Source of the DNA: a virus
Taxonomy: Duplodnaviria; Heunggongvirae; Uroviricota; Caudoviricetes
Length of the DNA: 64,000 nucleotides
Strand: one strand, 5' to 3'
Virus record (IMG/VR): IMGVR_UViG_648028025_000010
The position numbers are program-made. Positions 58,501 to 64,000 of this stretch are shown here, piece by piece. Numbering within the stretch: position 1 is the first letter of the stretch; every line of letters begins with the position of its first letter.

Positions 58501-61500
58501 AACGCTGGAATGTTGCTACATGGTTATTCAGTAACAGAGCCGCTGCACTGGAAGCTTCGGCATGTATTTGCGGCCTGTTCTTAACAGACCACAAATATAA
58601 TCTGGATGTGTACAGTTATATTTACGCTGAACACGGTCCACTCTGGATTGACTGGTAATTATAAGGAAACACCAGCAGGGCCGCGGCGACCAACAGAACG
58701 ATTAAAATCAATAATGCCATTATAAAGGACATTATTTAATTTATCGTCGAATGCTGATTCTGTGAGCCTCAACTCTGAATGAGTTTTTAATAACCCTGAT
58801 TGCCTGAGTTGATTTACCAGGCATTCAATCTGTTTTTCAATAAGCGGATTTCTTTTTTTGTTTGGCATTTTATCCTCCATTGAGGTTCTGGGTTAAAAAT
58901 GGAGACCAACACGCTGTCACGTGTGGTCGTGCGCCGGACACGGATAAGAATCCGGTACTGACAGTTTACTGAAAGGATATTTCCCTGAAAAGTCAGTGCA
59001 TAACGCGAAAGCGTACGGCGAAGCTCTTTCCCTTAGAAGGCTTGTCGTTAGATTTCTTCGAACGTGCGCTTCCGGTTGTGGCACTCCGCGAAATGGCGCG
59101 GCGGTAAGTATGGCGGGGTTATTCCTTCCCCATTGAGGACACCGGGTTGTCAGGTTGACCATACGCTTAAGTGACAACCCCGCTGCAACGCCCTCTGTTA
59201 TCAATTTTCTGGTGACGTTTGGCGGTATCAGTTTTACTCCGTGGCTGCTCTGCCGCCCTTTTTAAAGTGAATTTTGTGATGCGGTGAATGCGGCTAAGCG
59301 CACGCGGAACAGTTAAAACCAAAAACAGTGTTATGGGTGGATTCTCTGTATCCGGCGTTAATTGTTAACTGGTTAACGTCACCTGGAGGCACCAGGCACT
59401 GCATCACAAAATTCATTGTTGAGGACGCGATAATGGAAACGTTATTACCAAACGTTAATACGTCTGAAGGTTGTTTTGATATTGGTGTTCTGCTCAGTAA
59501 CCGGGAGTTTACTGAAGATGCCATTAACATGAGGAAATATGAGCCTTATCTGCTCAATGATAATTCCATACTTTCCCGAATTGCTCTTCTTGAACTTGGT
59601 ATTTTCGGAGAACGTCAATGACTTCAGCATTTGCACTGATGATGACGGTTTTTCTTATAACGGGTGAATCACAGAATGTGATTACCGGAATTTATGCCAG
59701 TAAAGAATCCTGCCTCCAGGCAAGAGACGAGCAAAAAATTTCTGGTGAATGCCTCCCGGTAAAAAAAGTATCGCTGTACCTGAATAACGAAACACCGGCT
59801 GGATAACCCTCCAGCCATATTAACACCATACCAACGGATTAAAAATGCCAGCAATGGCAGGGATTTGTTCACCCTTAAATCTGTAATGAGGTTTATCAAT
59901 GAGCACTGATAAAGAAGAATTTGCGCTATATTGCGAAGCAAAAAATGACAAAGTCAGAAAACGTCTGGGAATTAAAGGTGGTTTTTACTGGACTACAGCA
60001 AAAAAATTATCTGTTGCCATCTCCCGCTGCATTACCGCAATGGATGACAACGATTATGATGAAGACGACTTTAAAAAACCCGTTCGCGTCCATTTACCCG
60101 TTGTGAATGACCTTCCACCTGAAGGCGTGTTTGATACCGAATTCTGCAACCGATACGAAAAAGGCGGGGAAGATGGCATTACAATGGTATTTATCGCGCC
60201 CTCTCCCTCCGTGCAGGAGAAACCAGCCAGTACTGACAATACCAACGTCAACGGCGAAGACATGACGGAGATTGAGGAGAATATGCTCCTGCCGGTTTCT
60301 GGTCAGGAGCTGCCCATTCGCTGGCTTGCGCAACACGGCAGCGAAAAACCAGTAACGCACGTTGCACGGGAAGAACTTCAGGCATTACATATAGCACGGG
60401 CGGAAGAACTGCCGGCTGTTACTGCCCTGGCCATTTCTCACAAAACAAAGCTGCTCGACCCGCTGGAGATTCGCGACCTTCACAAACTGGTACGCGACAC
60501 TGACAAAGTTTTCCCTAATCCCGGTAATTCAGACCTGGGACTGATAACTGCTTTTTTCGAGGCATACCTGGACGCTGACTACACTGATCGGGGTCTGCTG
60601 ACAAAAGAGTGGATGAAAGGAAATCGTGTTTCGCGTATCACCCGTACGGCTTCCGGTGCAAATGCCGGTGGCGGGAACAAAACCGATCGCAATCCGAATT
60701 TAGTACACACCTTCGATACGCTGGATGTGGAGATTGCAGCAGCCACACTTCCGATGGATTTTAATATTTATGAAATTCCGGGCAGCGTTTATCGTCGCGC
60801 AAAAGAAATCGTCCTGAAAAGAGAAAGTCCGTTCAAAGAATGGTCCGCAGCACTTCGCGCAACCCCGGGTATTCTGGACTATTCCCGCGCCGCTATTTTT
60901 GCACTTATCCGGAGCGCTCACCCTGAGTTTTATCACTACCCGGGACGCCTTCAGGGGTATATCAACGCCTACTTAACGGAGACTGATCACGAGAACCCCA
61001 GCAAGGAAACTCTCACTGCTGCACGACATACACCGGAAAAAGATATCCTGGAAGAAGTTAACCGCGAACTGTCTGCTAAGCAGGAAACAGAAGAAGAAGA
61101 AAATGATGAAGAAAAACCGCAACCATCTTGCGCAATGGCAGATGAACAGGCAACGGCTGAAACAGTGGAACCGGATGCAACTGAACATCATCAGGACACG
61201 CAGCCGCTGGATGCTCAGTCACAGGTAAATTCTGTTGATGCGAAATATCAGAAACTGCGGGCAGAACTCCATGAAGCCCGGAAAAACATTCCGCCCCCAA
61301 ACCCTGTCGATGCAGACAAATTACTGGCTGCCTCTCGCGGAGAATTTGTTGAAGGGATTAGCGACCCGAATGATCCGAAATGGATTAAGGGGATCCAGAC
61401 CCGCGATTCTGTGTACCAGAACCAGCAAGAAACGGAACAGAACGACCAGAAAGCGGAACAAAACAGCCCAAATGCGTTACAAAACGAGCCAGAAACGAAA

Positions 61501-64000
61501 CAGCCTGAACCAGTGGCGCAACAGGAAGTGGAAAAAGTCTGCACCGCCTGCGGTCAGACCGGCGGCGGCAACTGCCCTGATTGTGGCGCGGTGATGGGCG
61601 ACGCAACATACCAGGAAACATTCGATGACAAGAACCTGGTTGAAGTTCAGGAAGACGATTCGGAGAAAATGGAAGGCGCTGAACATCCACACAAGGAGAA
61701 TGCTGGCAGCGCTCAGGACCACGCCAGCGATAGTGAAACTGGCGAGACGGCAGATCCCTTAATTACGGTGAACGGTCATCACGTTATCACATCCACCAGC
61801 AGGACGTGTGACCATCTAATGATCGACCTTGAAACCATGGGAAAAAATCCTGATGCCCCGATTATCTCAATAGGTGCAATATTTTTCGATCCGCAAACCG
61901 GAGATATGGGACCGGAATTTAGTAAGACTATCGATCTGGAAACTGCTGGCGGAGTCATTGATCGGGACACCATTAAATGGTGGCTTAAGCAATCACGCGA
62001 AGCGCAATCTGCCATTATGACCGATGAAATCCCGTTAGATGATGCACTGTTACAATTGCGGGAATTTATCGACGAAAACTCCGGTGAATTTTTTGTTCAG
62101 GTCTGGGGAAATGGAGCCAACTTCGACAACACGATTTTGCGCCGTTCATACGAACGGCAGGGGATCCCCTGCCCGTGGCGTTACTACAACGATCGCGATG
62201 TGCGCACAATCGTTGAGCTGGGGAAAGCCATAGACTTCGATGCCAGAACGGCTATTCCATTCGAAGGTGAGCGCCATAATGCACTTGATGACGCCCGTTA
62301 CCAGGCAAAATACGTTTCAGTTATCTGGCAAAAACTGATCCCGAGTCAGGCTGATTCTTAATGTTCAACTGTCGCCGGTTGTGACTGGTATTCTGCAACC
62401 GGCGCTCGTCTGATGTAAGAGATAAAGAAAGCGATGAGCGAAGTAATCATGATTGTCTCTCCCGGCAAATGGGTATCCGAAGAGCAGTTAATTGCGCTGA
62501 AAGGAATAAAAAAAGGTACGTTAAAAAAGGCCCGGGAAAAATCGTTTATGGAAGGAAGGGAATATAAGCATGTCGCTCATGACGGTATGCCATGGGATAA
62601 CAGTCCATGCTTTTACAACCTGGAAGAAATTGATCGCTGGATTGAGCGCCAGGCATCTGCAAGACCAAGACGTCATCTTGCTTGACTAAAAGCAACACGA
62701 ACCAATGAGAGAAGCTGAAATGAAATATCCGACAGGCGTGGAAAACCATGGAGGGAAATTACGTATCTGGTTTGTTTATAAAGGTGTAAGAGTCCGGGAA
62801 AATCTTGGGGTTCCTGACACAGCAAAAAACAGGCGCATTGCAGGTGAGCTACGCGCCTCTGTTTGTTACGCAATAAAAACTGGCGCTTTCGACTATGCAA
62901 AACAGTTTCCCGCCTCACACAATCTGGAAAAATTTGGTGAGGCCCGACAAGATTTAACCATAAAAGAACTGGCTGAAAAATTTCTGGCACTGAAAGAAAC
63001 TGAAGTCGCAAAAACGTCACTCAACACGTACCGTGCCGTCATCAAAAATATTCTGAGCATAATCGGTGAAAAAAATCTTGCATCATCGATTAATAAAGAA
63101 AAATTGCTGGCGGTACGTAAAGAGTTACTGACTGGATACCAGATCCCCAAAAGTAACTATATTGTTACACAACCAGGGAGATCGGCTGTTACCGTAAATA
63201 ATTACATGACAAATCTTTACGCCGTGTTCCAGTTTGGTGTTGATAACGGTTATCTGGCAGACAATCCATTTAAGGGGATCTCACCATTAAAGGAGTCGAG
63301 AACCATCCCGGATCCACTTTCGCGGGAGGAGTTTATCCGCCTTATTGACGCGTGCAGAAATCAGCAAGCCAAAAATTTATGGTGTGTTTCCGTTTATACT
63401 GGGATTCGCCCTGGTGAACTCTGTGCGCTTGGGTGGGAAGATATAGATCTGAAAAATGGAACAATGATAATCAGAAGAAATCTGGCAAAAGACCGTTTTA
63501 CAGTACCAAAAACACAGGCGGGAACCAATCGTGTGATTCACCTTATTAAGCCCGCAATCGACGCTCTCCGGAGTCAGATGGCACTAACGAGACTGAGCAA
63601 AGAGCATATCATCGATGTTCACCTCAGAGAATTCGGCAGAACAGAGAAACAAAAATGTACCTTTGTTTTTCAACCTGAAGTGTCAGCGAAAGTAAAAAAT
63701 TATGGTGACCATTTTACCGTTGACTCAATAAGGCAGATGTGGGACGCAGCGGTAAAGCGTGCCGGAATCCGCCATCGCAAATCGTATCAGTCGAGACACA
63801 CTTATGCCTGCTGGTCGTTAACAGCAGGAGCTAACCCGGCATTCATTGCAAACCAGATGGGCCATGCAGATGCGCAAATGGTGTTTCAGGTGTACGGGAA
63901 ATGGATGTCAGAAAATAATAATGCGCAGGTAACGCTGTTAAATACACTGTTAAGCGAGTTTGCCCCAACCATGCCCCATAACGAAGAGATGAAAAGTTAA

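Follow-up and report, generated by a model that had tools for sequence, protein, structure and literature searches.

Within a 64,000-nucleotide stretch of DNA from a tailed virus (Caudoviricetes; IMG/VR record IMGVR_UViG_648028025_000010), referred to below as the window, two tandem lambdoid prophages, A and B, each carry a gene for a large exonuclease, here called exonuclease A (823 residues) and exonuclease B (820 residues). Comparison of the two genes with each other and with their relatives suggests that they are diverged alleles of one modular gene of the RecE family, encoding a 3′–5′ DNA exonuclease that is tethered to a scaffold and would work without a phage annealase; we put the probability of this reading at roughly 0.55. 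Domain architecture, homologies and their breakpoints, intact catalytic motifs, conservation across species and mutual exclusion with RecT are all seen directly in the sequences.

Domain architecture of the two exonucleases

Both open reading frames (ORFs) were found intact where a preliminary description of the window had placed them (Table 1). Exonuclease B is 62% identical to residues 50–592 of RecE from the K-12 Rac prophage, and the Pfam family PF06630 (Exonuc_VIII) matches it with 119 bits against a cutoff of 25. The resemblance lies in the non-catalytic part of RecE, as the preliminary description had proposed: the NCBIfam RecE equivalog model NF007259 aligned with exonuclease B at profile positions 1–603 of 877 only, with a score of 1000 that falls below the cutoff of 1269, and DNA homology between gene B and Rac recE ends at 61763, which corresponds to RecE codon ~591. 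When the window was searched with RecE by tblastn, no counterpart of the RecE nuclease domain (residues 593–866) was found in its 64 kb. The RecE-like part of exonuclease B is followed instead by a 15-residue junction and then by a DEDDh domain that begins exactly at the start point of its standalone homologues (MIDLET). An internal start at Met641, which would yield the domain alone, was considered and rejected because the sole Shine–Dalgarno-like sequence, AGGA, sits 14 nt upstream, a poor spacing; the ATG of exonuclease B itself is preceded by a Shine–Dalgarno-like GAGG at a distance of 8 nt.

The first 256 residues of exonuclease A are 99% identical to K-12 YdfE, which by sequence identifies A as an intact version of ydfE, a pseudogene of the K-12 Qin prophage. 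Unlike the O26 copy described here, K-12 ydfE, at the same locus after dicB–ydfD, is cut by the insertion sequence (IS) IS2 and has lost everything past residue ~256. PF06630 gave no match to exonuclease A. The preliminary description had set the N-terminus of A apart from the RecE-like N-terminus of B; residues 262–627 of A are 40% identical to RecE residues 278–592, which leaves a contrast of degree only.

A 3′–5′ exonuclease domain of the DEDDh type, which the preliminary description had assigned to both paralogues, is complete in each. PF16473 (Rv2179c-like 3′–5′ exoribonuclease domain) matches both proteins over profile positions 2–177 of 177, scoring 227 bits where the cutoff is 27, and the full catalytic set is present (in B, D643 and E645 in the ExoI motif MIDLET, D743 in the ExoII motif NGANFD, and H793-x4-D798 in the ExoIII motif RHNALDD). 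The domain is identical between A and B at 183 of 183 positions. Among solved structures, sequence matching at E ≤ 0.01 returned only 8KEL and 8KEN, a 227-residue ‘exodeoxyribonuclease’ that is T4 DexA, as the 227 residues in the T4 record and the crystallography in PMC12153337 establish. Identity to T4 DexA is 32%; the MAFFT alignment sets the H-x4-D motif of DexA four residues off, although the motif itself is present. DexA and its E. coli homologue EcD thus share with the domain described here the Pfam family and the DEDDh catalytic residues, but the latter is fused to a 637-residue scaffold, lacks the DexA inserts and belongs to the early operon of a temperate phage. The namesake of the matched Pfam family, the M. 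tuberculosis exoribonuclease Rv2179c, is a standalone bacterial protein acting on RNA, and no Rv2179c-named chain was matched in the same search of solved structures.

The fusion recurs as an intact single ORF of 641–829 residues in 26 species-level loci, across which the DEDDh domain is 56–100% identical and the D/E/D/H/D residues are retained in 25–26 of 26. Standalone relatives of 180–190 residues, 57–87% identical to the domain, are common in enterobacterial prophages, and ‘3′–5′ exoribonuclease’ is a frequent name in databases.

Homology of the N-terminal regions

Over their last 350 residues A and B are identical at 327 positions (93%), which bears out the near-identity noted earlier for the last ~340. 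DNA similarity between the genes begins abruptly at B 61309 and A 9752 (codons 471 and 474) and extends for 1218 nt at 96% identity, past the stop codon into xis and up to the point at which an IS66-family element is inserted in A. The 49 nt just upstream of both start codons are also 96% identical, and no DNA similarity was detectable over the 1.4 kb between.

The first ~480 residues had been described as entirely different and the N-termini as unrelated; neither statement survives a more sensitive comparison. BLASTP of the first 470 residues of B against the first 473 of A gave one significant block, of 92 residues, which pairs B270–360 with A245–336 at 38% identity (E = 1e-13). For the regions upstream of this core block (the N modules), profiles were built from 21 YdfE-type sequences, the type of A, and 16 RecE-type sequences, the type of B, between which phmmer gave no cross-hits. 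Aligned with hhalign, the two profiles matched with a probability of 98.5% and an E-value of 2e-15 over 199 columns, such that A3–204 pairs with B6–232 at 10% identity. Controls in which the alignment was reversed, or in which its columns or its blocks were shuffled (five times each), gave E-values of 0.05–0.9, and a stricter subset of sequences reproduced the result. AlphaFold2 (AF2) models of the two fronts, with predicted local distance difference test (pLDDT) values of 71 and 85, agree in the succession of their elements: strand-helix-strand-helix, then a small sheet, then a helical region and finally an all-helical block. The profiles and models indicate that A and B are homologous end to end, with N modules that are remote homologues. 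A single gene with two diverged alleles, recently homogenized in their 3′ third, is a better reading of the pair than one domain on two unrelated fronts.

A modular family of relatives

A HMMER scan of 1.8 billion representative proteins with residues 1–345 of exonuclease A returned only 168 relatives. The ~95-residue core block recurs in every architecture and is present in almost all long relatives (P0389, P0390, P0463, P0467 and P0470 gave no block match), and YdfE-type and RecE-type N modules occur with DEDDh and with PD-(D/E)XK nucleases in all four combinations. Both types of N module stand in tandem, RecE-type before YdfE-type, in P0364, a 901-residue protein from outside the window in which they precede the core block and the DEDDh domain. 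Two separate N-module matches were also obtained for several RecE-type loci, L016 and L018 among them.

Many members with a YdfE-type module and the core block have neither a nuclease nor a Pfam domain in the C-terminal half; in eight such nuclease-less relatives, a search of the C-terminal halves found no Pfam domain. These members probably correspond to the ‘RecE-2’ proteins of PMC12315714, which appear to share the scaffold without a nuclease domain, unlike the window proteins with their complete DEDDh domain.

Absence of annealase genes

The preliminary description had reported that no annealase accompanies the exonucleases, and this holds both in the window and across related loci. Searches of the 64 kb by tblastn returned nothing for RecT, Bet, lambda Exo or Gam, Erf was likewise absent from the window, and no annealase appears in its PGAP and PHROG annotation. 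Relative to the RecE and RecT of Rac, with which the window proteins have the conserved motif and the zinc ribbon of the middle region in common, the window genes lack the PD-(D/E)XK 5′–3′ domain (RecE ~593–866), carry in its place a DEDDh domain of expected opposite polarity, and have no recT, ralR or rcbA in the window. They do not form a canonical lambdoid Rec module either, given that the gene adjoins xis–int and that no single-strand annealing protein (SAP), Gam or lambda Exo was found in the window by tblastn.

To compare loci across species, one genome per bacterial species was scanned with an alignment of the RecE-type block, which yielded 79 loci, nearly all in Enterobacteriaceae (one was from Pectobacterium, one from Erwinia and two from metagenome-assembled genome records with other genus names); this alignment favors the RecE-type block, and YdfE-type loci are under-sampled. 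We compared 64 loci from different Enterobacteriaceae species for which at least 2.5 kb downstream was available, counting as a SAP any RecT, Bet or Erf homologue within ±7 kb. None of the 22 DEDDh-type genes had such a homologue, while recT directly follows 41 of the 42 genes with the RecE nuclease (Fisher p = 3e-16); the sole exception, L085, is on the RecE_C side. No SAP, SSB or Abc2 match was found in the 22 DEDDh-type loci, where xis begins 53–92 nt and int 276–784 nt past the end of the DEDDh domain, leaving no room for an extra gene. Five further loci (L081, L084 and L086–L088) have no recognizable nuclease or Pfam domain. Both arrangements are also found in phage records: in vB_EcoS-640R1 the genes dicB and ydfD precede an exonuclease with 89% identity to B, after which come xis and int, and in Salmonella phage SPN3UB recE and recT are followed by xis and int. 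On these sequence comparisons, the absence of an annealase is a rule of the DEDDh family and not an accident of the O26 genome.

Direct succession by xis and int, another feature of the preliminary description, applies to prophage B, where the exonuclease stop and xis are 73 nt apart, too close for a further gene between them, and int comes next; in prophage A it applies only once the IS66-family and IS600 insertions are removed. A 212-residue protein (58020–58658) and a 205-residue protein (6759–7376) were considered as hidden annealases and rejected, as they match only PHROG and PADLOC families of unknown function and neither is conserved beside DEDDh-type genes.

Probable exchange between the tandem prophages

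The similarity between the 3′ parts of genes A and B is uneven. A mismatch map revealed a patch of low divergence (Table 1), to the left of which divergence is ~10% (46 mismatches in 61311–61785) and to the right of which it is ~6.5% (about one mismatch per 15 nt beyond 62615). Past the IS elements homology between the prophages resumes, at 94% in xis and 90% in int. A Chi octamer (CCACCAGC, 61793–61800) sits 8 nt from the left edge of the patch, counted rightward from the final mismatch of the left flank; in a homologous stretch of ~1.2 kb, a Chi this near would be expected by chance in roughly 2% of cases. Under the standard RecBCD model, Chi in this orientation would stimulate exchange rightward, into the patch. 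The patch thus looks like a Chi-associated conversion tract left by recent exchange between the tandem prophages, which would explain why the DEDDh domains are identical though the rest of the genes differ.

Prophage B contains five Chi sites on the phage top strand and two on the other strand, against ~1.7 expected. This suggestive but modest excess fits the idea that phages without a Rec module have high Chi: the table in PMC12315714 includes a small class with a nuclease only, no SAP and many Chi sites, and the count in prophage B (5/2) is just under the low end of that class (7/2).

Proposed function and alternative explanations

We propose that the gene belongs to the early-left operon of lambdoid phages and encodes a non-catalytic scaffold, comprising an N-terminal alpha/beta-plus-helical module, a helical core of ~95 residues, acidic linkers, a conserved motif and a zinc ribbon, which bears an exchangeable C-terminal nuclease. 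In Rac-type phages this scaffold would carry a PD-(D/E)XK 5′–3′ nuclease, always with recT; in the genes described here the cassette of RecE nuclease plus recT would have been swapped, at RecE residue ~592, for a DEDDh domain like that of T4 DexA, with xis following at once. By family, the protein is most likely a metal-dependent 3′–5′ exonuclease, and both the activity and its polarity, as well as DNA rather than RNA as substrate, are predicted on that basis. The RecE-type scaffold may direct the nuclease to a substrate or partner, which during lytic growth would probably be DNA ends, with expression from the repressor-controlled dicF–dicB transcript; any help with recombination or replication would come only through host functions such as RecA and RecBCD–Chi. 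Full-length RecE improves linear–linear recombination (PMC11611040), which fits a role of the scaffold at DNA ends.

DnaQ-like 3′–5′ nucleases are members of lambdoid Rec modules, and DnaQ-type genes outside a recognizable Rec module are usually near int or cI (PMC12315714). The standalone members, such as mEp235 gp30 and its counterpart in epsilon34, resemble the C-terminal domain described here (58% identity) and likewise belong to the early-left operon; the mEp235 gene lies between ssb and abc2, adjoining erf, in a Rec module. Unlike these nucleases, which are ~182 residues long, standalone and packed between erf/ssb and abc2, the window genes encode fusions and have no neighboring gene for a SAP, SSB or anti-RecBCD protein.

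Several points weigh against the proposal. The matched Pfam family is named for an exoribonuclease, so the substrate may be RNA, and 3′–5′ DNA exonucleases usually inhibit homologous recombination (PMC12315714). The 64 loci are species representatives linked by horizontal transfer and are not independent, such that the Fisher p-value overstates the evidence; the profile search for SAP families covered RecT, Bet and Erf, although DEDDh loci have no space for a gene ahead of xis. Prophage B has a modest Chi count, and the role of the fusion protein is predicted from sequence.

A bolder version of the scaffold idea, which we regard as tentative, holds that the N-terminal region of RecE is a portable targeting scaffold that takes interchangeable effectors to one cellular target, whether PD-(D/E)XK plus RecT, DEDDh alone or none; the DEDDh form would then define an annealase-independent pathway or a scaffold-directed exclusion nuclease. 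If true, this would be a new way for lambdoid phages that have no Rec module to process DNA ends for host recombination by RecA and RecBCD–Chi. Exclusion in a narrower sense, by an anti-phage nuclease of the HREX/EcD type that degrades the hydroxymethylcytosine DNA of superinfecting T-even phages and spares host DNA, seems unlikely. EcD protects against T4 and degrades T4 DNA, which contains 5-hydroxymethylcytosine (5hmC), but not unmodified DNA (PMC12153337); the DEDDh domain belongs to the same family as DexA, and a position beside int is a common spot for prophage accessory genes. The DexA residues for 5hmC recognition are nonetheless not retained, in that Y763 stands opposite W152 and the insert that contains D169 is confined to DexA, a weak point given an alignment of 32% identity, and in the same alignment the tetramer-forming D90 of DexA, which is Ala in EcD and whose loss defines the EcD-like dimer state, is kept as D715. 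EcD itself, compared here through its reported residues only, is standalone and begins MIDTET. The gene also ends a repressor-controlled operon, and the + strand from 57000 to 64000 has no promoter-like site, so that silence in a lysogen would be expected; PADLOC gave no match for B, a weak Cas-associated DEDDh match for A and no defense-system assignment. Slightly less probable still is an exoribonuclease acting on operon or small RNA transcripts, host RNA or nucleotide signals, with no role on DNA. Its appeal lies in the best Pfam match, the many ‘3′–5′ exoribonuclease’ names and the transcript that the gene shares with the processed small RNA DicF, against which stand T4 DexA, a DNA exonuclease, as the only sequence-matched structure, the standalone homologue among the recombination genes erf, ssb and abc2, and the fact that the domain takes the place of a DNA exonuclease on the RecE scaffold.

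The view of the preliminary description, that one DEDDh domain sits on two unrelated fronts in an incomplete RecET-like system, from which the annealase was lost or in which it was never present, agrees with a window free of annealases and with fronts that over the first ~245–270 residues show no similarity in DNA and hardly any in pairwise protein comparison. It is now very improbable, for profile comparison with clean controls shows the N modules to be homologous, both proteins contain the core block and a RecE-like middle region, and the absence of an annealase is conserved with intact genes in 22 species, with no loss specific to O26. We consider it equally improbable that both genes are leftovers of cryptic prophages, in decay and without a present function. 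Prophage A is defective (its xis and int contain IS elements, and structural genes are missing), the K-12 copy is a pseudogene and some other copies are broken by IS600 or frameshifts; both ORFs are intact in the window, however, the fusion and its catalytic residues persist across the 26 loci in spite of domain identities as low as 56%, the gene is present in the record of phage vB_EcoS-640R1, and 3,536 of 5,426 complete E. coli genomes carry gene A at a coverage of at least 80%.

Prevalence and significance

The gene itself is not new: both copies are already in RefSeq, as ‘exonuclease’, and in PHROGs (phrog_607 and phrog_2082). It is among the commonest prophage genes of E. coli, yet it is labeled just ‘exonuclease’ or, wrongly, ‘exodeoxyribonuclease VIII’; annotation pipelines should cease to transfer the RecE name and its 5′–3′ activity to DEDDh-type proteins. 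In the open-access literature we found no statement that the DEDDh form strictly excludes recT, that one scaffold is combined with nucleases of opposite polarity or that the YdfE-type and RecE-type N modules are homologous. RecE is in daily use for recombineering, and these three features offer a handle on its unexplained N-terminal two-thirds; they are also relevant to DNA handling by lambdoid phages that lack an annealase.

Genomic setting

Both exonuclease genes are 100% identical to copies in E. coli O26 chromosomes such as NZ_CP028116.1, in which the Qin site of K-12, adjoining rspB, is occupied by the two tandem prophages. Prophage A (~1–16.5 kb) is a Qin-like remnant with relBE, hokD, dicC/dicA-type regulators, DicF and dicB, and prophage B is a complete lambdoid prophage. 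In each, the leftward early operon ends with the exonuclease gene; the order is DicF, dicB, a small gene in the ydfD position, exonuclease, xis and int, which matches the K-12 order dicF–dicB–ydfD–ydfE–(IS2)–intQ.

Table 1 Features of the two exonuclease genes and their surroundings in the window.
Feature	Position	Strand	Basis or remark
Exonuclease gene A, 823 aa	8333..10804	+	RefSeq WP_000048369.1; PF16473 on residues 642–813
A N-terminal module, aa 1–244, YdfE type	8333..9064	+	Remote homologue of RecE-type module by hhalign; AF2 pLDDT 85; precomputed Pfam PF27430/PF27432 on homologues
A core block, aa 245–340	9065..9352	+	38% identity to B block
A DEDDh domain, aa 641–823	10253..10801	+	Protein sequence identical to that of B
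A xis, interrupted	10877..13835	+	ISCro1 (IS66-family) at ~10970–13668
DicF small RNA, prophage B	59207..59258	+	Rfam RF00039, 75 bits; exonuclease at distal end of dicF–dicB operon
dicB and DUF1482 (ydfD-position) gene	59433..59806	+	Directly upstream of exonuclease B, same orientation
Exonuclease gene B, 820 aa, RecE-family scaffold plus C-terminal DEDDh exonuclease	59899..62361	+	ORF; RefSeq WP_000102117.1, labeled ‘exonuclease’; Pfam PF06630 and PF16473; 100% identical gene in O26 genomes
B N-terminal module, aa 1–269, RecE type, alpha/beta domain then helices	59899..60705	+	62% identity to RecE from residue 58; Pfam Exonuc_VIII on residues 57–189; AF2 model
B core block, aa 270–365, ~95 aa, all-helical, conserved	60706..60993	+	38% identity to A245–336; pLDDT 87–94
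B linker, aa 366–470, acidic, poorly conserved	60994..61308	+	25 D+E against 11 K+R in 105 aa; no DNA similarity to A
B middle region, aa 471–637, common to A and RecE; conserved motif, zinc ribbon, 15-aa junction	61309..61809	+	144/167 identical to A; aligned to RecE 456–592
CxxC-x9-CxxC zinc-ribbon-like motif, aa 548–563	61540..61587	+	Read from translation; conserved in A and K-12 RecE
Low-divergence patch between A and B, 830 bp	61786..62615		3 mismatches; mismatch map
Chi octamer GCTGGTGG at scaffold/nuclease-domain junction	61793..61800	-	
B DEDDh (DnaQ-like, T4 DexA/Rv2179c-like) 3′–5′ exonuclease domain, aa 638–820	61810..62358	+	PF16473, 1.5e-67
Excisionase gene, prophage B	62434..62685	+	Start 73 nt past exonuclease stop
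Integrase gene, prophage B, 431 aa	62705..64000	+	Stop codon is the final bases of the window; rspB beyond in O26 genome, as at K-12 Qin

A second copy of DicF lies in prophage A (7637–7688, +; Rfam, 77 bits), and each copy is upstream of dicB and the exonuclease gene. The ydfB/ydfC position, between the repressor region and DicF, is held by two different proteins, the 212-residue one in prophage B (+ strand; phrog_2151) and the 205-residue one in prophage A (+ strand; phrog_35040); neither received a Pfam-like, PHROG-function or PADLOC assignment, and the ORF for the latter has no RefSeq annotation. In the xis of prophage A the ends of ISCro1 (10970–13668) are marked by duplicated GTTAAAA(A), and IS600 (14931–16087) interrupts the int of that prophage.

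Elsewhere in prophage B, on the minus strand, a sok antitoxin RNA (52554–52728, with hokD), a C4 antisense RNA (53437–53521) and an IsrK-like RNA (53547–53621) lie upstream of an ORF6N anti-repressor gene, an arrangement reminiscent of the c4–ant immunity of P1 and P7. Three phage tRNA genes (Arg, Arg and Ile; 48278–48524, minus) are located downstream of its Q antiterminator gene, and nleC, which encodes a type III secretion effector metalloprotease (17208–18194, minus), is cargo beyond its tail-fibre genes. Relative to NZ_CP028116.1 there is a 1-nt indel somewhere between 58658 and 59433, and the coordinate offset shifts by one between the two exonuclease genes. Single O26 chromosomes, NZ_CP028116.1 among them, have 6–8 separate places that match these exonuclease genes, which implies that most of the lambdoid prophages of such a chromosome carry a member of the family.

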